Source: a candidate division WWE3 bacterium RAAC2_WWE3_1 (GTDB taxonomy: Bacteria > Patescibacteriota > WWE3 > UBA101185 > UBA10185). From it: DNA of 64,000 nt. Of this stretch, positions 1-50,856 are shown in pieces. The first letter of the stretch is position 1, and the number at the start of each line of letters is the position of its first letter. The stretch spans positions 785,680-849,679 of the forward strand of contig CP006914.1 of assembly GCA_000503835.1 (NCBI GenBank), in the 5' to 3' direction. The notes beneath the pieces were generated by a model. The model had not been told where the DNA came from. It did no database searches and saw only the letters and a list, made by a program, of their open reading frames with translations. The position numbers and the translations under genes were made by a program.

Positions 1-10
1 TGAGGATTAC

Positions 11-2827
11 ATGTATAGCAACAATAATCCTACTCTCGACGCCCTTCTTACAAATTCTTTGGGGACAAAGACACTTTTGGATTTGGTCCGGCGTTCGGAA
101 GCAAAGTTCGTTCTTATATCAACGATTGACGTTTATCAGGGGAGGATGTCTCAGGACGAACTGGCCAAGTATTTCGGTCTTTCCAAACCGGAAGAAAATA
201 AATTCAGCTTGATAGAAGCAAAAAGATTCGCCGAGGCCGTGGTTTGGGAATATTTCAAAAAATACGATCTCGATGTCCGCATAGTCCGCTTGCCTGAAGT
301 TTACGGTCCGCGCATGAGCCTGGACTCAAGTGGCGTGATGGGTGTTTACATAAGGACTTTGATCGAGAACAGAGACATTGAAGTTCAGAACGACGGCGTG
401 GAAAAGGAATACTACCTTTATGTTTCCGATGCTGTCAGCGGCATCCTGAGGTCGATGTTCAACCGGGAAACAAAAGGAAATATTTATTCACTCGTACCGG
501 AATCAGCTATCACACAACTTGAACTTGCCTATCTTTTAAGAAGTGTGGCTGACGGCAACCTTCAGATTAGTTTTAAACAATCCGGATTTTCTATGCCTTT
601 CAGAGGTCCCGCGCCCGAGACGTTTAACCTAAAAGATTTGTCGTGGAAACCACGTATAAACCTGAAATCCGGAGTTGTGGATACATTGAAGTGGTTTGGA
701 TACGCCGTAAATCAGAACGCCTTTAAACCTACCAAATATGTTGAAGAGAGAGCAATCTCAAGGGGTACACAGACCACCACGGTAAGACCGCCCGAACCTC
801 CGAAGGTAAGTTCGATTTATCCGACAAATAGTGCCGACCTGTACACGAAAATGTATCCGGTCAGGAATATTAAGACCCGCAAGCGTTTTAATCCGGCGTC
901 AATATTCAGCAGGCACAAAAATGATGGTGCAGTTAAAAGCCTAACCCCTTCAAAAAAGCTCCCCGGATTTTTAGGGAACTCAAAATTTTATGTAGCCGTT
1001 GCGCTGATCGTTTCGGCGGTGTTGGTGTTTTTGGTCAATCCTGTTTTTAGTTTTTATTCAAATGCCCGTTCAGGAGCAGAGGCAATGCAAAGAGTCGCGG
1101 CTGCCGGTTCCGCACTTGATGTAGACAGTTTGTCGAAGAATGCTATTCTTGCTTCCGACAAATTCGAGGTTGCAAGAAAAAATCTTTCAAATCTCAAGTG
1201 GGTTTTCTCATTTTCGGGCAGATCCCAGGAATACATAAGTTATTTCCGTATGCTTTCTTCCTTACAAAACTTTTCGGATTCGGTGGAGCATCTTTCAAAA
1301 TCGGCCGAACCTTTGGAGGGAATGTGGGAGGTTCTACGTCCCGATACTAAAGATGTGCTGACACGTGAAACAGTTAACACCGCAAAACTTGAAATAGACT
1401 CGGCACAGAAACTTCTCTATATAGCCCAGGCCGATTTTAACGGGGTGGACAAAGTGCACATCCCCGAAAAATATAGGGGTTACGTATCGGATTACGGAAA
1501 ATATATAAGTACTCTCCAGCAAAATCTTGATCTGACAACTAAAATTATCGGAGAAGCCGCCGCCGTTCTGGGTGTCGACAAGGAAACCACGTATATTGTA
1601 TGGTTTCAAAATTCGAACGAGATAAGACCGACAGGTGGTTTCATAGGTTCATACGGGCTCTTAACTTTTGATAAGGGCAAGCTGAAAGACCTAAAGATTG
1701 ATGACATATACAACCCGGATGGCCAGATTCTGCTGAGGGAGATAAAGACAGTCCCGCCGGAGGTAATTTCCAAGTACCTGACCGAGGATAGACTTTACCT
1801 TAGGAATTCAAACTGGGATCCTGACTTTCCGACGGCAGCCGGCGTATTCAACGATTTGTTTTACAAAATAGACGGTCAGCGCGTTGACGGATATATTGCT
1901 GTAGATCTTAAATTTGTCGAGGGAATATTAAAAGCTACGGGTCCGGTGTTCCTGGCTGCTTACAACGAAGAGATTAACGCTGAAAACCTTTATGAGAGAA
2001 CGCAGTTTCACAGTGACTTCAATTACGTTCCCGGTTCCGATCAAAAAAGGTCTTTTCTAACTGTATTGGGAAGCAAACTGCTCGAAAAAATGTTCTCGCT
2101 CCCAAAAGATAAACTGCCTAATTTACTTGCGGAGACTCAAAGATCTCTCGATGAGAAACATTTGTTAATAAACTTATCGAACGGTGCGTTAAACGATGTA
2201 TTAAGAGAAAAAAATTGGAACGGGCAGGTTGTCCCCGTTGAAACCGATTATCTCTATGTTGTCAATTCCAACCTGGGCGGAACAAAAGCAAACTATTTTG
2301 TGAAGAATAACATCGATTATGAAATAAATTCCATGACACGCGACGGAGTGTTGAGAGCTACATTAAAGCTTACCTACAACCACACAGGAGAATCAATGGC
2401 GTGGCCGGGGGGTCCTTATAAGGATCATGTGAGGGTGTTGACTCAAACGGGATCTAAACTTACGGGGGCTGAGTTTATCGACGCCGCCGGAACCACTCTC
2501 GATGTGTTTAAAGATATAAAAGTAGGGGCTCCGAACGGATACGATGTTTTCAGCTATGATCTGATTGTTAACCCCAAGGAAACCGTTTCCCTGGTTTTAA
2601 AGTATGATCTTTCGGAGAGTCTTAATGTAACTAAAGACATGTCCTCTTACGCCTTGTATGTTCAGAAACAACCCGGAACGGACGCCGACCCGTTCAGTTT
2701 TACTTTCAACGCGCCGTTCGGTACAGAAATCATAAAAGCAAGTAAGGGGCTGGACATTTTGAACAATGGTATAGCAAACACATCGGATCTGCGCAGGGAT
2801 ATAAATTACTTTATAGAACTTCGCTGA
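11..2827 (+). CDS. 5' partial (open to the window edge). A degenerate NAD-dependent epimerase/dehydratase-like (SDR) segment is fused to a TM segment and a DUF4012-like extracytoplasmic domain.
   Basis: N-terminal 230 aa show a UXS/GalE-like pattern (RIVRLPEVYGPRM). The catalytic Tyr of YxxxK appears replaced (LIEAKRFAE). A hydrophobic segment follows (FYVAVALIVSAVLVFLV), then the DUF4012 hallmark IRPTGGFIGSYG. The frame is open back to nt 2. Confidence 0.5.
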   Translation: MYSNNNPTLDALLTNSLGTKTLLDLVRRSEAKFVLISTIDVYQGRMSQDELAKYFGLSKPEENKFSLIEAKRFAEAVVWEYFKKYDLDVRIVRLPEVYGPRMSLDSSGVMGVYIRTLIENRDIEVQNDGVEKEYYLYVSDAVSGILRSMFNRETKGNIYSLVPESAITQLELAYLLRSVADGNLQISFKQSGFSMPFRGPAPETFNLKDLSWKPRINLKSGVVDTLKWFGYAVNQNAFKPTKYVEERAISRGTQTTTVRPPEPPKVSSIYPTNSADLYTKMYPVRNIKTRKRFNPASIFSRHKNDGAVKSLTPSKKLPGFLGNSKFYVAVALIVSAVLVFLVNPVFSFYSNARSGAEAMQRVAAAGSALDVDSLSKNAILASDKFEVARKNLSNLKWVFSFSGRSQEYISYFRMLSSLQNFSDSVEHLSKSAEPLEGMWEVLRPDTKDVLTRETVNTAKLEIDSAQKLLYIAQADFNGVDKVHIPEKYRGYVSDYGKYISTLQQNLDLTTKIIGEAAAVLGVDKETTYIVWFQNSNEIRPTGGFIGSYGLLTFDKGKLKDLKIDDIYNPDGQILLREIKTVPPEVISKYLTEDRLYLRNSNWDPDFPTAAGVFNDLFYKIDGQRVDGYIAVDLKFVEGILKATGPVFLAAYNEEINAENLYERTQFHSDFNYVPGSDQKRSFLTVLGSKLLEKMFSLPKDKLPNLLAETQRSLDEKHLLINLSNGALNDVLREKNWNGQVVPVETDYLYVVNSNLGGTKANYFVKNNIDYEINSMTRDGVLRATLKLTYNHTGESMAWPGGPYKDHVRVLTQTGSKLTGAEFIDAAGTTLDVFKDIKVGAPNGYDVFSYDLIVNPKETVSLVLKYDLSESLNVTKDMSSYALYVQKQPGTDADPFSFTFNAPFGTEIIKASKGLDILNNGIANTSDLRRDINYFIELR

Positions 2828-2841
2828 TATAATAAAAACAA

Positions 2842-4524
2842 ATGCCACTAGCAGACATGCCCCAGTCAAATAAGCAGCACGCTGTTCCCCAGAATGTTAT
2901 GAGCGTGGATTTCAAACTTATCGGCGATCTTACGATGAGACAGTTTGCTTATGTTTTTATTGCCGGAATATTAGCTTATCTCTCGTACGTTTTTTTCATA
3001 GGTATTTTCCGCTGGCCCTTGGTATTTCTGATAGCTTTCGCAGGTGTGGGATTTGCTTTTATCCCGGTTCAGGAAAGGGGAATGGACGAGTGGATAGTTA
3101 ATTTTTTCAAGGCAATGTACATGCCCACCCAGCGTATTTGGAAAAAAGAACCTACTATCCCATCGGCATTTATGTACGACGATCTGGCTACCCTGAAACA
3201 GGAACTTATTACACTGGCACCGACATCCAGCCGAAGAAAGCTCGAAGAATACCTGAGGTACCAAACAGCCGAAGAAGAGGTGGACCCGCTTGATATTCCT
3301 GAAAAGGAATATGCTCAAAAGGTCAGGGATGCCTACCCCGCCTATAAGAAAAAGAGTAGTGCGGGAGCAACGGCTTTCTCACGTTCCTCATACGGGGCGG
3401 CGGCAGTTGGTGTTCAACCCGCATCGATAGCAGTTGTGGAAGCTCCGGCGCCTGCCGTCTTGGATGTGGAAACGGGGCAGGAAGAAGGTATTTTAGTGGA
3501 GACCCGGAAAGCCTCATCTACAACGCCCGAGAAACAAGAACTCAAAGAACAGACAGCAACTGTCCTTCAGAAACGCAAAGACGCCGGACTTTTTCACCTT
3601 TTCAGGGCAAAAGAGGCGCAAAAAGCACGGGAAGAGGCCAGGGGCAAGAGAATGCAGGATGTTACAGCCGTTCCCTTACCTCAGGGTGCACTTTCGGGAA
3701 CGGTCTCTTTAAGTCCTATGACGCCGGATATGCATTCAGGCAGGAGATTTATTAACCTGCTTCCGTCCCAGGGTGAGCTTATCCTGCCCATAAGAGGGGA
3801 GAAGGTGCTGCGCACGTCAGAGGAGATCTCGGTGGAGGAGAGTATAAACGATAAGGCGTTGAAACTTCAGTCTTTATTAAAAAAAATAAAGGACGAAGAG
3901 GGGATTAAGTCTCCGAAACCCGTAGCCGCACCCATTACGGTAGTACAAAAGAAAGAGCAGGAAGCCCAGGAAGTTCATGATGAAGCAAAGGATGTTGTAG
4001 GGAAGCTTAAGACACAAAGTGAAGAGCTTACGGACGAGATAATAAGACTTAGAAAGAATATTCAGACCACTTCTTCCCCGGGTGCCGGTTCTGAAACGCA
4101 GACAAGATTGTTGAAGAACCTGGAAAATAAGCAGCAGACGGTTGAAGAAAATTATCGGGTTCTCAGCCGCGGTATTCAAAGTCTAAAGTCTACTCCGTCC
4201 GGAGATACTGCGGGAAGTTCTACTCTAAACCTGGACAATTATCCGACGGACCACTTGGAGCCCAATACTTTACGCGGTGTGGTCAAAGGTAGTGAGGGAA
4301 AGGTGCTGACTGATGTTCTCCTGATAGTGAAGAACGAAAGAGAGGAGCCGGTACGCGCGTTAAAAACTGACAGCCTCGGCAGGTTTGAATTACTTTCAAA
4401 ACTCAGCAACGGTAAATACTCAATAGAAGTAAAACCCTCGGATGAAATGAAATTGTCCTTTGAGAAAATTTCTGTAGAATTAAAAGGTGAGGTAGTTCCT
4501 CCATTTGTGATATCCGGTAAATAA
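2842..4524 (+). CDS. PrgI/VirB3-like T4SS membrane protein with a long coiled-coil extension and a C-terminal carboxypeptidase-regulatory-like beta-sandwich.
   Basis: N-terminal 100 aa match the PrgI pattern (FKLIGDLTMRQFAYVFIAGILAYL, two TM helices). The middle is Lys/Glu/Gln-rich coiled coil. The C-terminus (LRGVVKGSEGKVLTDVLLIVKN...SLGRFEL) resembles a CarbopepD_reg fold. Confidence 0.5.
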   Translation: MPLADMPQSNKQHAVPQNVMSVDFKLIGDLTMRQFAYVFIAGILAYLSYVFFIGIFRWPLVFLIAFAGVGFAFIPVQERGMDEWIVNFFKAMYMPTQRIWKKEPTIPSAFMYDDLATLKQELITLAPTSSRRKLEEYLRYQTAEEEVDPLDIPEKEYAQKVRDAYPAYKKKSSAGATAFSRSSYGAAAVGVQPASIAVVEAPAPAVLDVETGQEEGILVETRKASSTTPEKQELKEQTATVLQKRKDAGLFHLFRAKEAQKAREEARGKRMQDVTAVPLPQGALSGTVSLSPMTPDMHSGRRFINLLPSQGELILPIRGEKVLRTSEEISVEESINDKALKLQSLLKKIKDEEGIKSPKPVAAPITVVQKKEQEAQEVHDEAKDVVGKLKTQSEELTDEIIRLRKNIQTTSSPGAGSETQTRLLKNLENKQQTVEENYRVLSRGIQSLKSTPSGDTAGSSTLNLDNYPTDHLEPNTLRGVVKGSEGKVLTDVLLIVKNEREEPVRALKTDSLGRFELLSKLSNGKYSIEVKPSDEMKLSFEKISVELKGEVVPPFVISGK

Positions 4525-4526
4525 AT

Positions 4527-5228
4527 ATGCCTGCTCAAACAACACCTACAACTCAAGATCATCTGGACATTTTTGATATAAAAGATAATCTCGTCCTTTT
4601 AAAAAATGGAGCTGTCTGTGCTGTTCTTCAAACGACTGCCGTAAATTTCGACCTGCTGTCCGAAATAGAACAGGATGCCATAATTGCGGCCTTTTCAATG
4701 CTTTTGAACTCTATTACCTTCCCGGTTCAGGTGGTCATAAGATCAAGAAGACTGGATATTACAAAATACATCGAGAAGGTGTACAGGGTAGAGACCCGTC
4801 TTACCGATCCGTTACTTAAGCATCAGGCACAGGCCTACAGAAAATTTGTTCAGGACGTTATAAAGAAAAACGATGTTTTGGACAAACGATTTTATGTTGT
4901 CATTCCTACAAGTGTTGCCGAGCTCACACAGCCCGGTTCCGGTCCTTTCGACTGGATGCTGAAGTTAACCGGACAGCATAACAAGAGGGTGTCTTTTAAC
5001 GTAGACAAAGTCCTTAATGATGGAAGAATAGAGCTAGCGCCGAAAGTCGACCACATTATAAAAGAATTTAACAGGCTTGGTATAAAAACCAAACAACTCA
5101 CGACCCAGGATCTTGTAGAGCTGTATTTTGATATTTATAACCCGACGACGATTCACGGGCAAAGAATACGAACAGGCATAGATGATTACACGACGGCGAT
5201 AGTAAACCCCGCCATCATAGAGGAATAA
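4527..5228 (+). CDS. VirB4 N-terminal-domain-like protein (CagE_TrbE_VirB-like), encoded as a separate ORF.
   Basis: Pattern IFDIKDNLVLLKNGAVCAVLQTTAVNFDLLSEIEQDAIIAAFSMLLNSITFPVQVVIRS resembles the N-terminus of Gram-negative VirB4/TrbE. No TM segment. The stop lies 1 nt before the next start. Confidence 0.35.
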   Translation: MPAQTTPTTQDHLDIFDIKDNLVLLKNGAVCAVLQTTAVNFDLLSEIEQDAIIAAFSMLLNSITFPVQVVIRSRRLDITKYIEKVYRVETRLTDPLLKHQAQAYRKFVQDVIKKNDVLDKRFYVVIPTSVAELTQPGSGPFDWMLKLTGQHNKRVSFNVDKVLNDGRIELAPKVDHIIKEFNRLGIKTKQLTTQDLVELYFDIYNPTTIHGQRIRTGIDDYTTAIVNPAIIEE

Positions 5229-5229
5229 T

Positions 5230-7347
5230 ATGGGACTAAATCTTTTTACAATGTTTTCCGACAAACCAAAACCCAGCAAACAACAGCAGGGGAAACCGGG
5301 TGAAAAAACACCGGCGCAGGTATTGGCTGAGGGAATGTTAAATGTCAGAGATATAATCGCGCCGTCGGCAATAGAGGTAGATTTCACATTTCTCCGCATA
5401 GGGAATGTCTACTTCAGAACAATATTCGTTTCAGGCTATCCGAGATTTGTAGGTGCAAACTGGCTGTCGCCCATCATCAACTTTGAGCATACGCTGGATG
5501 TTTCCATGTTTTATTATCCCGTTAAATCCAAAGTTATTTTGGATGACCTAAGAAGAAAAATTACGGAGCTTGAGGCCACGACGATGACCAACGTGGAAAA
5601 AGGAAAAATCGTAGACCCTGTCGTTTCTGCAGCACTTGAAGATGCAAAGGCTCTTCAGGAGCAACTCGTCAAAGGTGTGGAAAAATACTTTCAGTTTTCC
5701 TTCTACATAACAATTTCGGCTGAAACACTCGAAGAGCTTGAATCGGTAACTTCCAAGTTGGAAAGTACGTTAGGCGCCCTACTTCTTATTTCAAAAGTTG
5801 CGTCACTACAAATGGAAGATGCCTTCCAGTCCGCCATCCCCACCGGTTTGGACAAACTTTTAATAACCAGGAACATGGACACGACAAGTCTTGCAACTAC
5901 TTTTCCTTTCACCTCTTCGGATCTGACAATGGAAGAAGGGATCATGTACGGTATTAACAGGCACAACGGATCGCTGGTAATTTTCGACCGTTTCTCACTT
6001 GAAAATGCTAACTCGGTTGTCTTTGCAAAATCAGGTTCAGGTAAATCTTATTTCGTAAAACTTGAGGCCTTGAGATTGTTGGTGTTCGGTGCGGAAGTTA
6101 TGATTATCGATCCTGAAGAGGAGTATAGAACTCTCTGCGAAGCGGTAGGTGGGAATTATATAGACTTTTCGGCTAACTCTACTCATAAAATAAATCCGTT
6201 CGACCTTTCGGGAGTTGCGGTTGAAGGTGAAAACGAACTCGGCCAAAAATTAATTGGTTTAATCACTTTGCTTAAACTCATGCTTGGTGGCTTAACTGCA
6301 TCTGAAGAAGCAATTTTGGACAGAGCCCTAATTGAAACATACAGAATAAAAGGTATTACAACTGACCCCGATACTCAATCAGGTATAGAACCCCCGGTCA
6401 TGGAAGATCTCTATAAAGTTTTGATGGGGGCTTCCGAACCCGAAGCTAAGGGAATGGCCGAAAGACTTGAAAGATTTATTAAAGGGTCGATGACCGGCAT
6501 TTTCGATTCCCAGTCGAACATTAACCTCGACAGTAGAATGACCGTTTTCTCCACAAAGCATTTGGAGGAAGCATTAAGACCAATCGCTTTCTACTTAATT
6601 CTTGATTTCGTTTGGACCAGAATTAGGCGCGACTTGAAAAAAAGAATACTGATAGTGGAAGAAGCCTGGTACCTGATGCAGAATGAAGACAGCGCGAGGT
6701 TTATTTACGGAATTGCAAAGAGAGCCAGAAAATATTATTTGGGTCTGACGACTATCTCTCAGGATGTCGATGACTTTTTATCTTCGGAATACGGAAAGGC
6801 AATTGTTACAAACTCGTCTATTCAAATTTTGTTGAAACAGCACCCTGCAGGTATAGATAAAGTTGCCGAAACCTTTTATCTGTCGGAAGGTGAGAAAAGA
6901 TTGTTACTTGCTGCCGCAGTTGGAGAAGGTTTGTTCTTTGCCGGCGCCAACCACGTTGCAATAAAAGTCATGGCCTCTGAAGCGGAGCATAAACTTATTA
7001 CAACAAATCCGGAAGAACTGCTGAAGCTGAGGGAACAGGGTTTGATAAAACCGCTGGGTTCTAACGCACCGAAAAATACTGTTGCCATTCCGCCGGTGCA
7101 GAAACCTTACGAACCGATGAGGCAGGAGTCTTCGCAGAATACTCAAACTATTACCGACACGGCAACCACGTTGCAAAATCAGGGAGGGGCGAAACCTGAA
7201 GAGAATAAAACGGAGCAGCCTGCACCTCAGAACGAACCTTCCGCCGACGATATTTTGAGGTCGGTTGAGTCGCTTAATAAAGATCAGGGTACAATTAATC
7301 TTGGAAACACCCCATCACAGCCTGATCCTGCAGCTCCTACAGAATAA
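5230..7347 (+). CDS. virB4: VirB4/TraE/PrgJ-like type IV secretion ATPase.
   Basis: Walker A is AKSGSGKSYF and Walker B is RILIVEEAWYLM. The N-terminal RTIFVSGYPRFVGANWLSPII motif is typical of VirB4-family proteins. Length is 705 aa. Confidence 0.75.
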   Translation: MGLNLFTMFSDKPKPSKQQQGKPGEKTPAQVLAEGMLNVRDIIAPSAIEVDFTFLRIGNVYFRTIFVSGYPRFVGANWLSPIINFEHTLDVSMFYYPVKSKVILDDLRRKITELEATTMTNVEKGKIVDPVVSAALEDAKALQEQLVKGVEKYFQFSFYITISAETLEELESVTSKLESTLGALLLISKVASLQMEDAFQSAIPTGLDKLLITRNMDTTSLATTFPFTSSDLTMEEGIMYGINRHNGSLVIFDRFSLENANSVVFAKSGSGKSYFVKLEALRLLVFGAEVMIIDPEEEYRTLCEAVGGNYIDFSANSTHKINPFDLSGVAVEGENELGQKLIGLITLLKLMLGGLTASEEAILDRALIETYRIKGITTDPDTQSGIEPPVMEDLYKVLMGASEPEAKGMAERLERFIKGSMTGIFDSQSNINLDSRMTVFSTKHLEEALRPIAFYLILDFVWTRIRRDLKKRILIVEEAWYLMQNEDSARFIYGIAKRARKYYLGLTTISQDVDDFLSSEYGKAIVTNSSIQILLKQHPAGIDKVAETFYLSEGEKRLLLAAAVGEGLFFAGANHVAIKVMASEAEHKLITTNPEELLKLREQGLIKPLGSNAPKNTVAIPPVQKPYEPMRQESSQNTQTITDTATTLQNQGGAKPEENKTEQPAPQNEPSADDILRSVESLNKDQGTINLGNTPSQPDPAAPTE

Positions 7348-7375
7348 TTTTCAATTTTACAACTTAGGGATTTAC

Positions 7376-8488
7376 TTAAAGCTGAATCGGCATTATTATA
7401 TGCAAAAAATCTTCGGTAACATCGGTTTTAAAGATACATGCAGTACTGTTGGAACTCGCTTCCATATTTATCTTTTCACCCTTAACATTATTCAAAAAAT
7501 CAAGAAGGTATTTAGAACTAAAAGCTATTTCCAACATTTCCCCTTCTGTTTCGGCAGGAATTTCACTTTCATGAGTTCCGGTCTCGTTATTTAAAGAAGA
7601 GATTTTAATTAATCCTTCCGGATCTACGCGTAATTTAATAGTGTTATTTGTTCCCTCTTTTACAAAAACCGTAGTTAATCTCACTGCTTCCAAAAATTCA
7701 CCGGCGTTAAAAACCGCTTTTACTGGGGCAATTGTCGGTATTATTTTTTTGTAGTCCGGGTATTGTCCGTCAATAATTCTGGTTGCTATGGTTGTGTCTT
7801 CGGAAGAGAAAAGCGCGAGATTTTCATTTTCGCTCAGTATCATTTTCAAAGGTGATGTGGAAGATGCAAATACTTTGCTTACTTCCGCTAATGTTTTCGC
7901 GGGAATCAACGCTGTGAATTTCTTCGCGTCCGATTTTCCAACGGAAATGGATTTTTCGGAAAGTCTGAAACCGTCAGTTGCCGCTAAAACCATTTTGCCT
8001 TTCTCATATGTAATAAAGACACCGGTGAATATCGGTCTACTCTCATCCATAGATGAAGCAAATGTGACCATCGATACTGCCTGGGCAAAAACCGTCGGGT
8101 CAAGTTCCAGAGAAGTTTCGTCCTTTGAAATGCTGGGAAGTTCGGGATAATCTTTGGCGTCGGTTCCGTTTAATTTTGATTTTGTGTTGTCGGATTTTAA
8201 ATGAAGTATGTCGTTGTCCATTTTTATTTCAATAGTGGACGGGTGAAGATTGGCCACCAGTTCTTTTAAGACTTTCGCCGGTACGGTTATAGAACCCTCC
8301 TTATCAATGGAGGCGTTGACGTATGTGGTGATGGCTGTCTCGAGGTTGGTGGCGGCTAGTTTAATACGACCGTTGTCTGTAGAAATCAAAACGTTGGATA
8401 GTATAGGCAAAGAGCCTTTTGCAGGAACAGCCCTGGTTATTATTTGAAGACCTTTATTCAAATTTTCCTGGAGGCAAGAGAATTTCAT
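7376..8488 (-). CDS. dnaN: DNA polymerase III beta sliding clamp.
   Basis: MKFSCLQENLNKGLQIITRAV...ILSNVLI, 370 aa, canonical DnaN N-terminus. Confidence 0.9.
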   Translation of the reverse strand: MKFSCLQENLNKGLQIITRAVPAKGSLPILSNVLISTDNGRIKLAATNLETAITTYVNASIDKEGSITVPAKVLKELVANLHPSTIEIKMDNDILHLKSDNTKSKLNGTDAKDYPELPSISKDETSLELDPTVFAQAVSMVTFASSMDESRPIFTGVFITYEKGKMVLAATDGFRLSEKSISVGKSDAKKFTALIPAKTLAEVSKVFASSTSPLKMILSENENLALFSSEDTTIATRIIDGQYPDYKKIIPTIAPVKAVFNAGEFLEAVRLTTVFVKEGTNNTIKLRVDPEGLIKISSLNNETGTHESEIPAETEGEMLEIAFSSKYLLDFLNNVKGEKINMEASSNSTACIFKTDVTEDFLHIIMPIQL

Positions 8489-8490
8489 TT

Positions 8491-8943
8491 TTATCTTTTG
8501 GGTTTCAATGTAACCCTTCGGTCACGTCCTTCTCCGACGCTTTCCGAAACGACGTCATCGTATTCGGCAACAAACATGTGGATTTGTCTTCTTTCCCACG
8601 GGTCCATGGGAGGAAGTTCGACGTCCTTTTGAAAAAAGCGGACTCTGTCGATGTAGCTTTTAGCCATGTTTTGAATCTTTTCAGCGCGTTGGTCTTTGTA
8701 TCCGTTTATATCTATTAACACCGTGACCTGTTCTCCGGCTTGTCTCAAAACAGTCAAATGTAGAATGCTTTGCAAAGCATCCAAAGATTGGCCCTGATGT
8801 CCGATTAGGAAATTCAGGTTATTGCCCTGGATTTTTACTTCAAAGACCCCGTCGTCCTTGCCATTAATTTCATAGTTAGGATTTATTTTCATAAATCCGA
8901 AAATGTTGTCTAAAGTATTTTTTATTACTTCTATAATGTTCAT
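8491..8943 (-). CDS. jag: Jag/KhpB-like RNA-binding protein (KH + R3H), short form.
   Basis: C-terminal R3H motif (RRQIHMFVAEYDDVVSESVGEG). Sits immediately downstream of yidC. Confidence 0.75.
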   Translation of the reverse strand: MNIIEVIKNTLDNIFGFMKINPNYEINGKDDGVFEVKIQGNNLNFLIGHQGQSLDALQSILHLTVLRQAGEQVTVLIDINGYKDQRAEKIQNMAKSYIDRVRFFQKDVELPPMDPWERRQIHMFVAEYDDVVSESVGEGRDRRVTLKPKR

Positions 8944-9728
8944 TTTTTTGCTCCTTTAGCTAAGGCCAATTTCTTGACCCAGGGCTCCAGGCCGCCCCAT
9001 CCACTGGTAAAGTACGTCTGGGCAATCTGGAATAGGGTCGAGACAATTATGTATATCATAACACCTGAGGGCAAGGTCAGACCGAAAACAAAAAACATGA
9101 GGGGCATGACGTACAAGTTTTGTTTTTGCATTGATTGCATCATGTCGTCGGTCTTATCCGGAGTTTTCTTAACGATCTTATCGTTTATTTTGGAGAAGGG
9201 CATCATCATTTTGGTTGCTAAAAACTGGAAGACCACCGCCAATATAGTGATGATGAATATCGGATCCGGTTTTGACAGGTCGAGATAGAGGAATTTGGTG
9301 TTTATGGTTTCATCGGCCTTAAATTGAAATTGCTGAAAATATATATTTTTGTTTAAGTCGTTCAGACTTGTGCCGTTAGTCATCGTTATCACCGATCTGT
9401 AGACGGCAATCATGAAGATAAGTGTGACTATTGTTGTAAGACACCCTGACGCCGGGTTGATCCCGTGCTTTTTCATAAGTTCCATTTGCATAGCAGCCAT
9501 CTTTTTCTTGTCGTAACCATATTTTTCTTTTATTTTTTGGATTTCCGGTTGAATATCACGCTGTTTCTGGCTCATCTTAATAGATGGAAGGGTAACGGGT
9601 ATCATCACGGCCTTAATTATTAGGGTAAAAAGTATAATCGCGGTTCCCAGGCTACCTACAAATGAGTAAATAACAATTAAAATGTTAAATATCGGATTTA
9701 AAATTATATTTTGCCAGATTTCCGCCAT
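8940..9728 (-). CDS. yidC: Membrane protein insertase YidC/Oxa1 (short form).
   Basis: NPIFNILIVIY...AIILFTLIIKAVMIPVTLPSIKMSQKQRDIQPEIQKIKEKY is the conserved YidC core. Confidence 0.85.
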   Translation of the reverse strand: MAEIWQNIILNPIFNILIVIYSFVGSLGTAIILFTLIIKAVMIPVTLPSIKMSQKQRDIQPEIQKIKEKYGYDKKKMAAMQMELMKKHGINPASGCLTTIVTLIFMIAVYRSVITMTNGTSLNDLNKNIYFQQFQFKADETINTKFLYLDLSKPDPIFIITILAVVFQFLATKMMMPFSKINDKIVKKTPDKTDDMMQSMQKQNLYVMPLMFFVFGLTLPSGVMIYIIVSTLFQIAQTYFTSGWGGLEPWVKKLALAKGAKK

Positions 9729-9734
9729 AATCGT

Positions 9735-9950
9735 TTATTTTACAGGATCGTAACCTCCTTTGGAAAACGGATTACATCTTACCAGTCTTTTTACTCCCAG
9801 GATAGTGCCTTTTAAGGCGCCGTACTTTTCCACAGCTTCGTAGGTGTAATCGGCGCAGCTGGGTGTGAATCTACAGGTATTTATACCGAAATTGCCGGGA
9901 CTAAGCGTTTTTTTGTATATTTTTATTAAAGTCAGTATCAATTTCTTCAT
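9735..9950 (-). CDS. yidD: Membrane protein insertion efficiency factor YidD.
   Basis: [33 protein letters not shown] is the YidD signature. Confidence 0.8.
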
Positions 9951-10239
9951 ATGTTTTTCCCGCCGAAGAATGTTTGGGATATATGGAAATCCAGCGGTCT
10001 GCGGGTATCAAAGCCAGGTTTTTCCTTACGGTTTCGCGGAAAAGCCTTTTTATCCTGTTTCTGTCTGTGGCGTTCTTGCTGAATCTGGTGGATACAACAA
10101 AGCCTATTTTCGGCTGTCCTGTGTAGTTTTCGGGTTTTAGGATGTATAAGATGAAGTTGTCGCCCTCGATTTTTTGACCGTATTTCTTGGTTATCTTGTA
10201 TTCGAAGGGTGTGGAGAGACGGTTTTCTTTTTTCAGCAT
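9901..10239 (-). CDS. rnpA: RNase P protein component.
   Basis: [31 protein letters not shown]...NRIKRLFRE is the RnpA pattern. Overlaps the yidD start. Confidence 0.8.
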
Positions 10240-24577: not shown

Positions 24578-25321
24578 ATGGAAAAGTCTAAAAGTTCAAA
24601 CATCGTTCAATTAGTACTCATTGCGGCGTTAGTCGGGGCGGCTTTTTATATCGGCGGGCTGTCATCAAAAGTGGGAAAGTTGGAAGAAGCTAGTAAGAAT
24701 AATGCCGGGACGCCTTCTAAAGCTACCGGTGAGGATGCGGCTGCCTTTAATGCTGTGGAACTGGCTTCCACCCTTGGTTTGGACTCGGGAGCTTTCAAGA
24801 CCTGCGTCGACAACCGTGAAACGAAAGCAAGGGTCGAGGAGGAAGAAAAAGGCGGACAGAAAGCCGGTGTATCCGGAACTCCCGGTATATTCATGTTCGA
24901 TACCCAGACAGGAAATTCCGCAGTCATTCCCGGAGCAGTAGATTCCACCACGATGCAGCTTTTTCTTGATAACCTGATTGCGGGGAAAAGCACAACATTA
25001 GGTACTCAGGAGTTCAAACTTGAAAAAGTCGCGAACTTAGTAGCTTTGAATGATGCAGACTACGTTAGAGGAGATAAATCGGCACGTGTGTTGTTGTTCG
25101 AGTATTCCGACTACGACTGTCCTTTCTGCAAAAGGGTTCACCCTACATTAAAAACTCTTCTGGAAAATAACGCAGACAAGGTCGCCTGGATCTACAGGCA
25201 GTTCCCGCTGGATCAGTTGCATCCTACAGCCAGAGCCAAATCCGAGGCCGCGCTTTGCGCAGGAAAGCTCGGTGGAAATGATGTCTTTTGGGCATTTTCC
25301 GACGCACTGGCCACTAAATAA
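24578..25321 (+). CDS. Membrane-anchored DsbA-like thiol:disulfide oxidoreductase whose domain segments are in permuted order.
   Basis: TM, then LGLDSGAFKTCVDN...GVSGTPGIFMF (the C-terminal half of DsbA), then VLLFEYSDYDCPFCKRVHP...AALCAGKLGGNDVFWAFSDAL (the CxxC N-terminal half), after which the protein ends. Confidence 0.6.
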   Translation: MEKSKSSNIVQLVLIAALVGAAFYIGGLSSKVGKLEEASKNNAGTPSKATGEDAAAFNAVELASTLGLDSGAFKTCVDNRETKARVEEEEKGGQKAGVSGTPGIFMFDTQTGNSAVIPGAVDSTTMQLFLDNLIAGKSTTLGTQEFKLEKVANLVALNDADYVRGDKSARVLLFEYSDYDCPFCKRVHPTLKTLLENNADKVAWIYRQFPLDQLHPTARAKSEAALCAGKLGGNDVFWAFSDALATK

Positions 25322-28709: not shown

Positions 28710-29348
28710 TTATTTTAGATTAATTTCCCGAACAAGTTTGTAGCCGGTTTCTTCCCCTCTTACTACTTGTATATTATTTATCATGAATGCCTTTGTCTTT
28801 GTATGTTCCAATAATTCCAGTCTTATCTTCTCCAGCCGGCTGTTGTTGTTCTTAACAAACCCTAAAGTTATATGCGGAAAATATTGGTTTATTACGAAAG
28901 GATTTCCATAAATTTTTAGCATTTCTTTCTGTTCTATATTATATTTTCTCCGGGGTTTCAGGTAATCTTTGCACACGCAGTTACCTTTATATTTTGATAC
29001 TTTTTCGACTATAGAACGATGAAGAGTTTTTAGCTCCGGGGTAGCTTCCAATTTCAGGTAAAATAATCCGAAGGGAAAGTACTCCAGTTTAGAAATTACG
29101 GTCTTTATACCGGACCGGTCTTTGAGTAAATCTTCAAGCTCCGAAATCACTTGAGGGATATTTTCTGTCGGAACATCCAGGTCATACATATTTAGATGGG
29201 GTCTGTTCGTGTCGGAAAATACAGATACCCCGTTATATTTAGAATTCAATATTTCGTTTATTATCGTGATTTCTTTAAAAAGTTCAGACTCTTTCCAAAC
29301 ATCACTTCCGATTCCTAACCATTCGCATTTAACGTTACTATTATTCAT
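28710..29348 (-). CDS. 2H phosphoesterase (LigT / 2'-5' RNA ligase-like) family protein.
   Basis: HITLGF and HLNMYDL H-x-T/S-x motifs. The ORF-track start at 29477 overlaps a tRNA; the internal Met (MNNSNV) is the likelier start. Confidence 0.45.
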   Translation of the reverse strand: MNNSNVKCEWLGIGSDVWKESELFKEITIINEILNSKYNGVSVFSDTNRPHLNMYDLDVPTENIPQVISELEDLLKDRSGIKTVISKLEYFPFGLFYLKLEATPELKTLHRSIVEKVSKYKGNCVCKDYLKPRRKYNIEQKEMLKIYGNPFVINQYFPHITLGFVKNNNSRLEKIRLELLEHTKTKAFMINNIQVVRGEETGYKLVREINLK

Positions 29349-29385
29349 TTGCTTGTATTTTGTCTTAATAACTGATGTTCTTTTC

Positions 29386-29462
29386 TGGTCGGGGTGACAG
29401 GACTCGAACCTGCGGCCTTTCGCACCCCATGCGAACGCGCTAGCCAACTGCGCCACACCCCG
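29386..29462 (-). tRNA. tRNA-Pro (anticodon GGG).
   Basis: The reverse complement CGGGGUGUGGCGCAGUUGGCUAGCGCGUUCGCAUGGGGUGCGAAAGGCCGCAGGUUCGAGUCCUGUCACCCCGACCA folds as a cloverleaf. Acceptor is 7 bp, T-loop TTCGAGT, U33, anticodon GGG, G37, encoded CCA. Confidence 0.85.
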
Positions 29463-29556
29463 ACGCCTACGAGTCAAAATTTACCATTATTCCGGTCAAA
29501 AATCCAACATTTAAGGTTGGAAAAGGATTTAGAAAAAGAAAAAGCGGCAAAATTTT

Positions 29557-46543: not shown

Positions 46544-48763
46544 TTACTTTTGAATAGGTTCCGCGTTATTATCCGACGTTGCCTGTGGCTTGGGGATCTT
46601 TTTTAATGTTCTGGTATAAATCACCACTTTGGCATCCTTCATAAGTTTCGATGAAAGTTGCTGGGAAAGCTCGCTGTGTTTTTCTGCGGTTAACCGTTCG
46701 CGGATATATTCCTTTGATTGCTCAAACGTAAGCTGTTCAGGTTCCGAACGATCCAGAACTTCGACGATGTAGATATAACCATTCGCTTCAAACGGTGGGC
46801 CGATTTCTCCTTTGGGAATAGCCTGGACCTGCTCATGGTACTGATGCTTGACAATTTCTCCCATAAGATCCATTTCCTCTTCCACCCATTCGGCAACTTC
46901 GCCTCCTTTATCTTTTGTGGCTTCATCTTCCGAATATTGTTTGGCAACAGAAGCAAAATCTTCTCCTTTTTTCAGAGGTCCGGGGACGAGCTTTTTGTAC
47001 GCTTCGTTAGCTTTGTCGAAGGCCTTTTTGTGTTCATCGTCGGTTGCGTTATCGGAACTACCCGCACGAATGACGATCTGACGAACCTTTGACTTGGCAG
47101 GTTTTATAAATTGCGGTTTGTTGCGGTTGTAGTACTCCTGGATATCTTTGTCCTCAACTTTGATTTTCTCATCTACCTCCTCCTGTTCAAGCATCTGAGC
47201 CAGGACTTTCAGGCGCATCTCATCTTTGCGCTCCTTTGTTTCAGTTTGGGATACCTGGCTTAGACTGTCTTCGTATAAAAGCAAACGCTCGATAATTTTC
47301 TCAACCAATGCCTGCTTACCTTCAGTACCGGCGTATGAAGATAGAAACGAAAGCGGCAGTTCCTGATATTCTTCCCAGAATTCACCCAACGTAAACCGTT
47401 TGCCGTTGACGGTAAAGAGTGTCCTGTCGGCATTGTCGGTATAATATTTCTTTTCCGTCTCGGTCAGGACCGCCGTCTGCACCTGTGAGCGGATTTCCTC
47501 AAAGCTCTGCTGCCGTTCCGGCTGTTTGGAACTAAGTTTGGCAATGACAAATGAATCTTTGTCAACAATAACATCGCTTATCTGCTGCGGATCTAGCCGG
47601 AAAATCGCTTCTTCATAACCAGGATCGTTTTCTCCTTTGATCCTTGTTTCTCCGGTCTGGGGAAGCGGAGAGCCGGTTATTTCCTGATACACCTGGCCAA
47701 AATCGCTTCCGGAACGGATTTTCGATAAAGTCTGTTCGGCTTTTTCTTTAGCCTTCTTTTCATCAGCGCCTTTCGGAATACGGATTTCAAATACAACGGC
47801 CTGGGCTTTGACCAGATATTTATCCTTATTGGCATCATAGTAGTTACGCAGTTCCCAGTCGGCAGGTTCAGGAATGACCAACACCGCCGGATCACGGGTA
47901 ATTGAGGCTTTATTTTTCAGACCGGTAATGTAGTTTTGGACAAACTGATCTTCTTTTTCACTCTGAAGTTTCGTTTTTATTTCTTCACGGACATCGGTCA
48001 GCGTTTTATCTCCGAAATCCTTTCTGTTGGCGTCATAGTAGGCACCGATGTCTCCCTCGGTTACCCCGAGTTGCCCTTTATGCATTTGGGCATGAAGCTC
48101 ATCCAGGTTTATTTCCTCGGTAATATGCTTCATCACATGGGAAAATTCTTTATCCTGATCGGGTTTGCGGGTAGCCTGCCAGCGTTTGACGATTTCATCG
48201 GTGATCATTTCCTGAACGATCAATGCATACCCTTGGGGAGACTTAAGCTGCATTTGCGTCGCCTTGTCCTCAACGAGAGACGCCAGATGCTTTTCAACAT
48301 CCTCAATCGTGATTCTGCCGCCGTCATATGCCGCGACGACATTAGGGGCTGGTGGCCAGGGGGCAAAAATGTCTTCACGAAATCTAAATATAAGAAATGC
48401 TGCAACTATAATTACGCCCAAAACAATCTTCTTCTTTTTTGATAAGTGAATTTTGGGGAGGGGTAATCGTGATGGCTTACTCTCCGGTGACTGCTCTTCG
48501 GCCTTAATAGACTCTATCGTTTGTACCGGGGGAATTTCCTGAGGTGGAATTTCTTTCGGAACCTCAGCACCTTTTTTATCAGGTTTCTTTTTCTCGTGTT
48601 GAATCCGCACCGGTTTTTCAGGCAGAGGTTTCTGTTTTTGGCTGCCTCCGGAAAAACCCAATGATTGTCTGATGTCAGCAAACACCTGACCCCAGTCCTC
48701 ACCGGATTTGTCTTTAGCGGCCACCTTCGGTTTGTGGTGGGAAGACATTGACTTTTGTTTCAT
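46544..48763 (-). CDS. PpiD/SurA-like membrane-anchored peptidyl-prolyl isomerase (parvulin domains), with a Lys/Pro-rich N-terminus.
   Basis: Single TM (IVLGVIIVAAFLIF). The PpiC-type block GEDFASVAKQYSEDEATKDKGGEVAEW...GEIGPPFEANGYIYIVEV. Confidence 0.6.
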   Translation of the reverse strand: MKQKSMSSHHKPKVAAKDKSGEDWGQVFADIRQSLGFSGGSQKQKPLPEKPVRIQHEKKKPDKKGAEVPKEIPPQEIPPVQTIESIKAEEQSPESKPSRLPLPKIHLSKKKKIVLGVIIVAAFLIFRFREDIFAPWPPAPNVVAAYDGGRITIEDVEKHLASLVEDKATQMQLKSPQGYALIVQEMITDEIVKRWQATRKPDQDKEFSHVMKHITEEINLDELHAQMHKGQLGVTEGDIGAYYDANRKDFGDKTLTDVREEIKTKLQSEKEDQFVQNYITGLKNKASITRDPAVLVIPEPADWELRNYYDANKDKYLVKAQAVVFEIRIPKGADEKKAKEKAEQTLSKIRSGSDFGQVYQEITGSPLPQTGETRIKGENDPGYEEAIFRLDPQQISDVIVDKDSFVIAKLSSKQPERQQSFEEIRSQVQTAVLTETEKKYYTDNADRTLFTVNGKRFTLGEFWEEYQELPLSFLSSYAGTEGKQALVEKIIERLLLYEDSLSQVSQTETKERKDEMRLKVLAQMLEQEEVDEKIKVEDKDIQEYYNRNKPQFIKPAKSKVRQIVIRAGSSDNATDDEHKKAFDKANEAYKKLVPGPLKKGEDFASVAKQYSEDEATKDKGGEVAEWVEEEMDLMGEIVKHQYHEQVQAIPKGEIGPPFEANGYIYIVEVLDRSEPEQLTFEQSKEYIRERLTAEKHSELSQQLSSKLMKDAKVVIYTRTLKKIPKPQATSDNNAEPIQK

Positions 48764-49847
48764 TTCCTTCCAGTAATTTTAGATTAACCCGTTCTCCCGG
48801 CTTAACGATATAGGTAGCGATTCTGGGAAATATTTTTTCCATCCGCTCCAGATACAGCCGGAAACGGGTTACCTGCTCTCCGTAAATACTACTGTTGGTT
48901 CTGTATTGGGTCAAAATTTCATTGAATGCCACCGCTGATCCGCTTGCTTCATTGATCTGCGCAGTCGCCGAACTGCTGGCTTCGGTGATCAATTTTTGGG
49001 CCTGTCCACGGGCCTCAGGAATGACGCTATTTTTATACCCTTCGGCTTCATTGACGGTTTTGCTTTTATCCTCTCTGGCGCTTGAGACGTCACGGAAGGC
49101 ATCGGCTACTTCATCGGGGGGATAAGCCTTTTGAAAGTTGACACTGACAACTGCCAGTCCGCTATTATATGAATCCAGAAGTGTTTGTGTTTCTTTCTGT
49201 AGCCGGTTCAAAACACTCTGACGTTCTGAGGTAAGAATATTATCTACTGCAGTTTCAGCGCTGATCTTTGTTACTGCAGCCCGCACGGCATCACGGACTG
49301 TCTGATACGGAGCATAGTCAATGTTAAAAAGGTAAGCGGCTGGTTCCCTGACCTGATATTGAACAATTACTTCATAATCAATAATATTGGTGTCACCGCT
49401 TAACACCTGCAACTTCCCGGGTTGTTCCATATGTTTGGGGTGCTCCGGTTCCGGACTAAGGAGACCGACACTTTCCCGTCTGACTTCGGAAACACTTACA
49501 ATGGTTTCTTTGTCAACCGGCCACGGCAGCCGATAATGCAGACCCTCCGATACTTTGGGACTGACTACTTTGCCGAAACGGGTAACTACCGCAGCTTCTC
49601 CGGGTTTAACGATATAAATACCTGAGAGAAAATAAATAACCACAATAATTTTGACAATATTCCCGGAAATATAGCGGGCATTAACGTGGGCAAAGGCCTG
49701 TTTGATGTCAGTCAGGGATGATGATCCGTCGGCTGACCGGATTTTGGCCGTGACCGACTGAATCAACCGCACCAGCATACCTATAACCGTGAGTATGCGT
49801 TTGGTAATCTGTGCTAACAGCTGTTTTATGTTGTTTGTTTGTTCCAT
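48714..49847 (-). CDS. hflK: SPFH/band-7 protein HflK.
   Basis: IVKPGEAAVVTRFGKV...LSGDTNIIDYEVIVQYQV...PDEVADAFRDVSSAREDK. Confidence 0.8.
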   Translation of the reverse strand: MEQTNNIKQLLAQITKRILTVIGMLVRLIQSVTAKIRSADGSSSLTDIKQAFAHVNARYISGNIVKIIVVIYFLSGIYIVKPGEAAVVTRFGKVVSPKVSEGLHYRLPWPVDKETIVSVSEVRRESVGLLSPEPEHPKHMEQPGKLQVLSGDTNIIDYEVIVQYQVREPAAYLFNIDYAPYQTVRDAVRAAVTKISAETAVDNILTSERQSVLNRLQKETQTLLDSYNSGLAVVSVNFQKAYPPDEVADAFRDVSSAREDKSKTVNEAEGYKNSVIPEARGQAQKLITEASSSATAQINEASGSAVAFNEILTQYRTNSSIYGEQVTRFRLYLERMEKIFPRIATYIVKPGERVNLKLLEGNETKVNVFPPQTEGGR

Positions 49848-49911
49848 ATAAAGATACCGACACTTCTTTTACTTATCTTCTTCACGATTTCAGCACTTCA
49901 TCTGAATCCGT

Positions 49912-50844
49912 TTACGGATTGAGATATTTTAAGAGTTCTGAATCGGAAGGAAGAATAAGCGTTGTGCCCTGATTTATGACCTTGTCGTATGATTCAAGCG
50001 TACGCAGAAACTGGTAAAACGCCGGATCCTTGCCGAAGGCCTGAGCATAGATACGGATTGCCTGGGCTTCACCCTCTCCCTTAATCTTGTTTGATTCCTC
50101 CTGAGCTTTGGATAAAAGAGTGATTTTCTCAGCGTCAGCTTCGGCTCTGATCTTTGTTGCTTCTTCTGTCCCTTCAGAGCGCAACTGCCTGGCTATCTGC
50201 TGACGTTCTGCGCGCATGCGCTGAAATACACTTTGTCTATTGGACTCGGGGAAATTAAGCTGTTTGAGCCGCACATCGGCAACTTTAAAGCCGTAGGATC
50301 GTGTCCGTTCGTCTGTTTGCTTGGTAAGGCCCGCAAGCATTTCATCCAGCTTCATCTGGCTTTGGTCGGTAGTGACCAAATTGGTCAACTCATACTGTGA
50401 CAGCGCCACTCCGAGTTCGGACGTAAGAATATCCGATAGCCGTGAGGACGCTCCCTGGGCATCTCTGACACTTTTGAAAAATTGCACTGGGTCATCTATC
50501 TGCCAGGTAGCGTATGCTTCTACCAATACGTTCTTCTTGTCTTTGGTCAGGAACTCGGTTTGGGTGACGTTATGCACCTGAACGCGCTTATCCAGGCGAA
50601 TTAGATTTTGCAAAGGATCGGGAAGTTTGACATACAACCCCGGCTCTTTAATCGCCCGGACCGGACTGCCGAACTGAGAGACGATGGCATACTGCGTGGC
50701 GTCTACCTGAAAAGCGACTAACGTCGAGAGAATCAATAGGATTCCGACTCCTAAACCAACTAACACTTTCGGCTGACGCAGCGTCTGCCAACTGATTCTG
50801 TTTCTTGCCTGGTCTACAAACGATGATTGTGTTCTGTTTCTCAT
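49912..50844 (-). CDS. hflC: SPFH/band-7 protein HflC.
   Basis: VDATQYAIVSQFGSPV...LTKDKKNVLVEAYATWQI...ADVRLKQLNFPESNRQSVFQRMRAER. Confidence 0.8.
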   Translation of the reverse strand: MRNRTQSSFVDQARNRISWQTLRQPKVLVGLGVGILLILSTLVAFQVDATQYAIVSQFGSPVRAIKEPGLYVKLPDPLQNLIRLDKRVQVHNVTQTEFLTKDKKNVLVEAYATWQIDDPVQFFKSVRDAQGASSRLSDILTSELGVALSQYELTNLVTTDQSQMKLDEMLAGLTKQTDERTRSYGFKVADVRLKQLNFPESNRQSVFQRMRAERQQIARQLRSEGTEEATKIRAEADAEKITLLSKAQEESNKIKGEGEAQAIRIYAQAFGKDPAFYQFLRTLESYDKVINQGTTLILPSDSELLKYLNP

Positions 50845-50856
50845 AAATTCACCTCC

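Follow-up and report, generated by a model that had tools for sequence, protein, structure and literature searches.

A 64,000-nucleotide (nt) stretch of DNA from a candidate division WWE3 bacterium (Patescibacteria), referred to here as the window and used for all coordinates, encodes an elongated member of the PrgI/VirB3 family of type IV secretion system (T4SS) subunits. The protein belongs to this family by profile, by its membrane hairpin and by gene position, and it is encoded together with a VirB4 ATPase split over two genes. After a PrgI/VirB3 module of ~165 residues it continues for ~400 residues through a disordered linker, a conserved linear motif and long charged helices to a terminal transthyretin-like beta-sandwich. 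The reading that best explains the whole, and to which we give slightly better than even chances, is that the protein is the VirB3/PrgI anchor of the WWE3 T4SS and bears a cytoplasmic arm serving as a tether or adaptor at the ATPase. The machine is a known one, whereas its enlarged PrgI/VirB3 subunit appears to be undescribed.

Anatomy of the elongated subunit

The anatomy is drawn from an alignment of 53 homologues, its per-column conservation profile, and a full-length AlphaFold2 (AF2) model with a mean predicted local distance difference test score (pLDDT) of 64. The open reading frame (ORF) opens with ATG and specifies 560 amino acids (aa) before its stop codon. Its N-terminal region matches the Pfam PrgI domain (PF12666) at 38.1 bits against a gathering cut-off of 27 (E 2.3e-9). 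This match covers positions 2-90 of the 91 in the profile, and all 53 aligned homologues likewise score above the cut-off. A first-pass annotation, made from the letters alone, had recognized a PrgI/VirB3 core with two transmembrane helices and an RQFAYVF motif, staking the assignment on similarity in a profile search. That similarity is present in the query and throughout the alignment, the hairpin spans residues 34-77, and the motif occupies residues 33-39.

The membrane part of the protein is a tight hairpin. Hydropathy analysis displays exactly two hydrophobic segments, at residues 34-56 and 58-77, and AF2 places helices at 23-51 and 57-73 (pLDDT 82-91), followed by a short third helix at 80-93. 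A third hydrophobic segment is absent from the query and from 118 of 120 homologues. The hairpin has a median length of 42 aa, and most of 214 relatives carry one Lys or Arg in its turn. Flanking the hairpin are the most conserved parts of the protein, residues 1-33 and 78-160. By analogy with R388 VirB3, residues 1-33 may be the cytoplasmic part that binds VirB4 and TrsD, equivalent to helix alpha1. The module after the hairpin (residues 78-165) is modeled as helices at pLDDT 56-71, and its residues 100-165 extend the conserved region past the Pfam domain. Searches of Protein Data Bank (PDB) sequences with the single sequence and with the family profile return no VirB3 or PrgI chain, only weak coiled-coil and SdrD-B similarities, and a Foldseek search with the full-length model matches the C-terminal domain alone, with no VirB3 among the matches.

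The middle of the protein consists of three unlike parts. The first, residues 166-290, is a low-complexity linker, predicted to be disordered, that holds most insertions and deletions of the alignment. Across the family this first linker ranges from 36 to 427 aa, with a median of 119-120 aa and 13% Pro. The second is a motif of 35 residues with seven invariant positions (H298, G300, R301, F303, L315, P316 and G319), for which neither Pfam nor NCBIfam gives a match and AF2 gives no confident fold. The third is a set of three long charged helices.

The extension of roughly 450 aa in the first-pass annotation was described as coiled coil and beta-sandwich, with about 300 aa of charged coiled coil. 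The beta-sandwich stands, as detailed below, but the coiled coil was overstated. A register scan for heptad a/d hydrophobic periodicity, measured against the shuffled sequence, exceeds the 99th percentile only in residues 380-416 and 421-454 and in two marginal windows at 287-316, which lie outside the predicted helices. Helices are found only within 326-449, the heptads mainly within 380-454, and residues 166-325 are disordered or form the linear motif. Thus ~125 aa are helical and ~75 aa coiled-coil-like, not 300. The family profile searched against PDB chains similarly returns weak coiled-coil matches (keratin 2B, CdvA and mitofusin HR2) over residues 362-473. In the longest relatives (890-1074 aa) no domain other than PrgI and CarboxypepD_reg is found, and the linkers are longer.

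The C-terminal domain is assigned to the transthyretin-like fold, and on the strength of profile and model this assignment is solid. The Pfam profile CarboxypepD_reg (PF13620) reaches 23.5 bits on residues 476-531 of the query, below its cut-off of 32.3, but it matches 52 of the 53 aligned homologues at E<=1e-3 (best 9.8e-10), and one relative scored individually (P0198) reaches 33.2 bits. Modeled alone from 58 sequences, the domain yields seven strands with a pLDDT of 90.9 and a predicted template-modeling (TM) score of 0.80. Foldseek against the PDB gives a probability of 1.0 and TM-scores of 0.58-0.70, with matches including 3mn8, 2nsm, 5aq0, 8bdw, 4v4c and transthyretins. The carboxypeptidase-regulatory-like beta-sandwich of the first-pass annotation is therefore borne out, with the query itself below threshold.

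The likeness to CarboxypepD_reg and other transthyretin-like domains (for example, those of carboxypeptidase D, 3mn8 and 5aq0) lies in the seven-strand prealbumin-type sandwich. The WWE3 domain is only 12-22% identical to the solved examples, and the protein that bears it is a T4SS membrane subunit, not an enzyme, a receptor or a pilin. Among the Foldseek matches are extracellular modules, namely the transthyretin-like domains of carboxypeptidases D, N and M, CnaB2, and modules of SdrD, UafA and pilins. Equal scores are obtained for intracellular proteins, namely transthyretin-related 5-hydroxyisourate hydrolases, the small subunit of pyrogallol transhydroxylase (4v4c) and intradiol dioxygenases. 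Since the fold occurs in cytosolic enzymes and surface proteins alike, it is no guide to cellular location. In relatives down to 26% overall identity the charged residues R505, K508 and E529 are conserved, and K497 and K548 are nearly invariant. As a speculation from this pattern, the basic residues K497, R505, K508 and K548 would suit an acidic or nucleic-acid ligand.

Relatives and described systems

The long form is the norm in the WWE3 lineage. A HMMER search of 1.84 billion cluster representatives returns 2044 matches at E<=1e-3, 1457 at E<=1e-10 and 421 at E<=1e-30, and nearly all of the top 150 are 400-1074 aa long. The nearest proteins (82-95% identity) and the nearest loci are found in metagenome-assembled genomes (MAGs) of candidate division WWE3, such as RIFOXYC2_FULL_42_13. 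In a scan of one genome per species, 120 genomes encode a relative, and 80 of the loci were fetched to compare gene order; the entire ORF is readable in 65 of these and measures 391-744 aa. Of 249 relatives scored with block hidden Markov models built from the 53-homologue alignment, 229 have both the N-terminal module and the beta-sandwich, and 159 have all four blocks. The first-pass annotation recognized neither this prevalence of long forms nor the locus as a published Patescibacteria T4SS. Relatives already carry the automatic label 'PrgI family protein' or 'Carboxypeptidase regulatory-like domain-containing protein'.

TrsD and VirB4 are 65-80% identical in relatives in which the whole elongated subunit is ~40% identical. 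Within the subunit, the motif and beta-sandwich are conserved while linkers vary from 36 to 427 aa; with the retention of blocks counted above, this places the arm under selection as a unit. Natural split genes encoding the tail as a separate protein were sought, and all seven candidates begin inside conserved blocks, as fragments cut at contig ends. Short relatives without the N-terminal module start in mid-block and are therefore truncated gene calls rather than natural splits.

Many of the MAGs that carry this locus (L006, L009, L010, L015, L017 and others) bear the title 'uncultured Candidatus Saccharibacteria bacterium'. Identity to the WWE3 window is 45-69% for their DnaN and 70-80% for their VirB4, the same range as in WWE3-titled MAGs. 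Because of this equal similarity they are taken as members of the WWE3 lineage, and the organism names that they have in GenBank are likely to be generic or mistaken.

The locus is the known Patescibacteria T4SS, which is chromosomal, origin-proximal and related to the mating-pair formation (MPF) class MPF-FATA. Quinonero-Coronel et al. 2025 (PMC12102498) describe a Patescibacteria locus whose VirB4 is monophyletic and akin to that of the monoderm MPF-FATA class and in which TrsD is the commonest accessory protein, and report 1,649 VirB3/PrgI homologues, mostly beside virB4. According to the same study, the locus often lies near dnaA, dnaN and rnpA, is almost without relaxase and seldom has coupling proteins nearby; few VirB8 homologues and no adhesins turned up in the clusters. 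The WWE3 locus displays a CD1110-type VirB4, TrsD-like and PrgI neighbors, and adjoining origin genes.

The subunit has the traits of the PrgI family in its above-threshold profile match, its two-helix hairpin followed by a short helix, and its position beside VirB4 genes. It breaks with the family in size. PrgI proteins are small (~100-150 aa, 10-15 kDa), whereas this one has 560 aa and its relatives 391-1074 aa. The figure of about 100 aa for canonical members in the first-pass annotation agrees with a 2025 T4SS review (PMC12857230), in which VirB3 measures 10-15 kDa and comprises two membrane helices and one C-terminal helix, its short termini both being cytoplasmic, and PrgI of pCF10 has 117 aa. 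With PrgI of Enterococcus pCF10 and VirB3 (TrwM of R388) the WWE3 protein shares the conserved N-terminal segment, the hairpin, the short amphipathic helix, the Pfam match and the position of its gene immediately ahead of those for VirB4. In contrast to them, it adds a 65-aa module after the domain, a disordered linker, the motif, long helices and the beta-sandwich. Moreover, unlike the loci of pCF10 and R388, the WWE3 locus is chromosomal, its neighbor is a split VirB4, and the scanned parts of the window hold no relaxase or coupling-protein gene.

A closer comparison is with Southlakia epibionticum, in which transposon sequencing (Tn-seq) by Wang et al. 2023 (PMC10633639) found the system essential for epibiotic growth. 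The tables of that study list SEML1_0010 as an essential 'PrgI family protein' of 903 bp (300 aa) with PrgI at residues 5-90; additional helical regions are present, and the next genes encode a 293-aa protein and VirB4. The two systems are alike in the order PrgI, TrsD-like, VirB4, which in Southlakia is that of the essential genes SEML1_0008-0010, in their proximity to origin genes and in having an elongated PrgI. However, the WWE3 form has almost double the length, and its terminal CarboxypepD_reg-type beta-sandwich is unreported for the Southlakia protein. The genes upstream of PrgI also differ: that of Southlakia encodes a 998-aa protein, with 'Type IV secretion system protein' as the label of its nearest structural match, and that of the WWE3 locus an epimerase-DUF4012 fusion. 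PMC12102498, PMC10633639 and PMC12857230 make no mention of VirB3 proteins with a long tail, coiled coil or carboxypeptidase-like domain, and the main text of PMC12102498 does not mention WWE3. The literature on the PrgI family and on PrgI in Patescibacteria yielded no description of this architecture. The 'extended' VirB6 proteins (PMC12857230) offer an analogy, in that a core inner-membrane T4SS subunit is enlarged by big hydrophilic domains, but subunit and fold are different and no homology is implied.

Location and role of the arm

The number of membrane helices in the protein is even (two) and no third segment is present, so its two ends must share one side of the membrane. The cryo-electron microscopy (cryo-EM) structure of the R388 machine shows VirB3 wrapped around the VirB4 N-terminal domain; of the three VirB3 helices, two cross the membrane (PMC9259494). 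Given that R388 VirB3 wraps this cytoplasmic domain and that the WWE3 protein has two membrane helices only, its tail is most likely cytoplasmic, which we consider probable; an extracellular tail is a distinctly less likely outcome. Two sequence features point the same way. Within 15 residues of the hairpin, 214 relatives average ~2.0 Lys or Arg in the N-terminal flank and ~1.9 in the C-terminal flank, compared with one in the turn, an excess that would be a weak positive-inside signal for both ends in the cytoplasm. Furthermore, the conservation of residues 1-33 and 78-160 would fit a cytoplasmic interface with the highly conserved TrsD and VirB4. Cysteine depletion was tried as a marker of location and is uninformative: Cys makes up 0.44% of residues in 19 other window proteins, and the chance of finding no Cys in 460 aa is 0.13.

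A role for the subunit can be proposed from this arrangement. The first ~165 residues would do the canonical VirB3 job of holding the cytoplasmic ATPase (TrsD-like protein plus VirB4) against the membrane, probably with the TrsD-like protein as the direct partner of the PrgI module. By analogy with R388, where each machine holds six VirB3 copies (PMC9259494), a single PrgI would be expected for every ATPase protomer. The extra ~400 residues would form a lineage-specific arm, most likely reaching into the cytoplasm, in which 1) the disordered Pro-rich stretch may be a tether of variable length, 2) the conserved 35-aa motif may be a docking motif, 3) the helical, partly coiled-coil segment could pair the arms of neighboring protomers, and 4) the terminal beta-sandwich may be a binding module. 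Most likely, such an arm would serve for tethering or recruitment on the cytoplasmic side of the ATPase. Speculatively, it may grip the ATPase barrel itself in the manner of a stator or clamp, or it may recruit a substrate or an adaptor. Recruitment is plausible because the gene clusters of these systems are usually without a coupling protein (PMC12102498).

An analogy is offered by the peripheral-stalk and stator tethers of hexameric ATPases. The b subunit of F-type ATPases and flagellar FliH each combine a membrane anchor, long helices and a small terminal binding domain beside a ring ATPase. No sequence or fold similarity to these tethers turned up in the PDB-profile and Foldseek searches.

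Several points weigh against a cytoplasmic tether. A disordered linker of ~125 aa would make a poor rigid stator, the hairpin shows no more than a weak charge bias, and the analysis yielded no binding partner of the motif or of the beta-sandwich. Domains of the CarboxypepD_reg type are mostly found in secreted or surface proteins, and the beta-sandwich has many CnaB, pilin or adhesin domains among its structural neighbors. A charged linker with 13% Pro also resembles the spacers that span cell walls.

In the foremost alternative, an unlikely one in our estimate, both ends of the hairpin lie outside. The tail would then be an extracellular Pro-rich and coiled-coil stalk crossing the wall, with the beta-sandwich as an adhesin or as the host-side part of a conduit, and it might take the place of the VirB8- or VirB10-like parts, which are elusive in Patescibacteria. 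Apart from the mostly extracellular kin of the beta-sandwich (CnaB, pilin, SdrD-B and carboxypeptidase domains) and the Pro-rich linker, it draws on the scarcity of VirB8 and the lack of detected adhesins in Patescibacteria T4SS clusters (PMC12102498), and the conserved Lys or Arg in the hairpin turn is compatible with a cytoplasmic turn. However, an exported tail needs a topology opposite to that of VirB3, and it would carry out of the cell a conserved, charged 33-aa N-terminal tail that in R388 binds the ATPase. Lys and Arg are richer in the flanks than in the turn, neither a signal peptide nor a third membrane helix is present, and residues 78-160 are as conserved as the ATPase partners. 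Moreover, the C-terminus bears no wall-anchoring or sorting signal in its sequence, and the fold is shared with cytosolic enzymes (4v4c, 5-hydroxyisourate hydrolases and dioxygenases).

The surface-exposed or adhesin-like elaboration suggested in the first-pass annotation consequently finds no support: the two helices, the R388 analogy, the cytoplasmic termini of VirB3 and the charge bias, weak as it is, speak for the opposite side. Still less likely is the full form of the exported arrangement, with an inverted VirB3 topology in which six copies build a wall-spanning stalk whose beta-sandwich tips touch the host cell. Equally open, and speculative, is a cytoplasmic alternative in which the arm is a built-in substrate receptor in place of the absent coupling protein.

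The tail may also be a passive, fast-evolving spacer or crowding element around the ATPase that has no specific partner, with the beta-sandwich as a mere stable cap. About a quarter of the protein is disordered and highly variable in length and sequence, and profile searches assign no family-level function to the motif or the helices, as this explanation would have it. It is improbable, however, in view of the seven invariant residues of the 35-aa motif, the conserved charged residues of surface type on the beta-sandwich and the four-block order kept in most relatives. Finally, an artefact, whether an assembly or frameshift error that joined two genes or a PrgI-like hairpin that arose by chance and has no relation to a T4SS, has nothing in its favor beyond the existence of a few short relatives and is barely credible, as those are contig-end fragments, the single ORF recurs in dozens of independent assemblies, the PrgI match is above cut-off in every aligned homologue, and the gene always precedes TrsD and virB4.

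Genomic setting and implications

The features of the protein and the two genes that follow it are collected in Table 1.

Table 1. The elongated PrgI/VirB3 gene, its parts and the adjoining ATPase genes (window coordinates)
Feature	Residues	Coordinates	Strand	Basis
Elongated PrgI/VirB3-family gene	1-560	2842..4524	+	ORF list; full-length homologues at 26-95% identity in WWE3/Patescibacteria
N-terminal segment, QHAVPQN.M.V.FKL.GDLTMRQ, helix from residue 23	1-33	2842..2940	+	3.45-3.85 bits per column; invariant columns
PrgI domain, PF12666	15-99	2884..3138	+	Pfam, above gathering cut-off
Two-helix membrane hairpin, turn of 1-3 residues (F-R/K-W-P)	34-77	2941..3072	+	Hydropathy; AF2
Post-hairpin module, amphipathic helix 80-93 then LAPTSSRRKLEEYL...DPLDIPE.EY..KVR	78-165	3073..3336	+	Conservation 2.9-3.9 bits; invariant residues
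Disordered linker, variable, Pro/Ala/Ser/Thr/Gln-rich	166-290	3337..3711	+	Conservation 1.0-1.5 bits; pLDDT < 50
Linear motif, P.TPDMHSGR.F.NLLPS.GELILPIRGE.VL	291-325	3712..3816	+	3.69 bits over residues 301-320
Three long charged helices (326-353, 370-409, 415-449)	326-449	3817..4188	+	AF2, pLDDT 82-90
Seven-strand transthyretin-like (CarboxypepD_reg-type) beta-sandwich	475-560	4264..4521	+	Pfam; AF2; Foldseek
TrsD-like gene, 233 aa, VirB4 N-terminal-domain-like		4527..5228	+	NCBIfam TrsD 3.5e-7 and VirB4 N-terminal regions; syntenic in 71/80 loci
VirB4-type ATPase gene, 705 aa, CD1110 family		5230..7347	+	NCBIfam NF045971, 382 bits against cut-off 325; Pfam TraG P-loop 4e-29; syntenic in 68/80 loci

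The genes form a tight operon, with spacers of 2 nt between the elongated gene and the TrsD-like gene and 1 nt between the latter and virB4. The 233-aa product resembles both TrsD and the N-terminal 200 residues of VirB4, and as a lookalike of the VirB4 N-terminal domain it indicates that the ATPase is split over two genes, TrsD-like and virB4. The VirB4 protein itself ends in a low-complexity tail of ~100 aa rich in Pro, Gln and Thr, which is not conserved; tblastn matches of its relatives mostly stop at residues 600-670.

The elongated gene starts 14 nt past the stop codon of the gene upstream. In the product of that gene (window positions 1-2827, plus strand), an NAD-dependent epimerase/dehydratase is fused to a membrane segment and a large DUF4012 region. 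This copy runs off the left edge of the window, with 938 aa visible; in a related locus, L004, the fusion has 1032 aa (4888-7986). By local tblastn, the fusion lies directly upstream in 48 of the 80 compared loci, and given this position it may be co-transcribed with the secretion genes. Downstream, dnaN, jag, yidC, yidD and rnpA occupy 7376-10239 on the minus strand, convergent to the secretion genes, and convergent dnaN, jag and yidC recur in 49-52 of the 80 loci. The origin-proximal placement is as published for Patescibacteria secretion loci, and no dnaA is seen between rnpA and dnaN. A promoter and terminator scan of 2400-7800 finds sites no more frequent than in shuffled sequence.

Relaxase, VirD4, VirB6, VirB2 and VirB8 have no match among 34 window ORFs and 7 upstream ORFs of L004, although small or divergent components could escape such a search. 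These ORFs otherwise belong to housekeeping families. The 5 kb upstream in L004 encode groES/groEL, a nucleotidyltransferase, RNase H, a Wzz-like protein and the epimerase-DUF4012 fusion. The local WWE3 module is just the elongated PrgI, the TrsD-like protein and VirB4; other parts, if any, are elsewhere in the genome or too divergent.

Elsewhere in the window, three consecutive SPFH/Band 7 genes (377, 310 and 506 aa) lie at 48714-52377 (minus strand), the third fused to an N-terminal cation-efflux (CDF) transporter domain. Three DsbA-like thioredoxin-fold proteins are encoded within the 64 kb, at 24578-25321 (plus strand), 53499-54431 (minus strand) and 62038-63165 (minus strand), in a genome otherwise very poor in Cys, as judged from the 19 proteins checked. 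The only tRNA gene found in the window, tRNA-Pro with anticodon GGG, lies at 29386-29462 (minus strand) and is overlapped by a 255-aa ORF at 28710-29477 (minus strand), which is probably not a gene.

The T4SS is essential for growth on the host in the one tractable species (PMC10633639, PMC12102498, PMC12857230). The identity of the WWE3 locus is unchanged by the present finding, which concerns one of its parts. Normally no core subunit is smaller or less elaborated than VirB3; in the WWE3 class VirB3 is five times larger, with a putative docking motif and a terminal domain that may bind a partner. If the tail were exported, the subunit would be the missing envelope-spanning or adhesive part of an essential, non-conjugative machine at the interface of ultrasmall epibiont and host. 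On either side of the membrane, the location of the arm would show where this machine departs from conjugative systems, and its partner could reveal a substrate, an adaptor or an additional structural contact of the ATPase.

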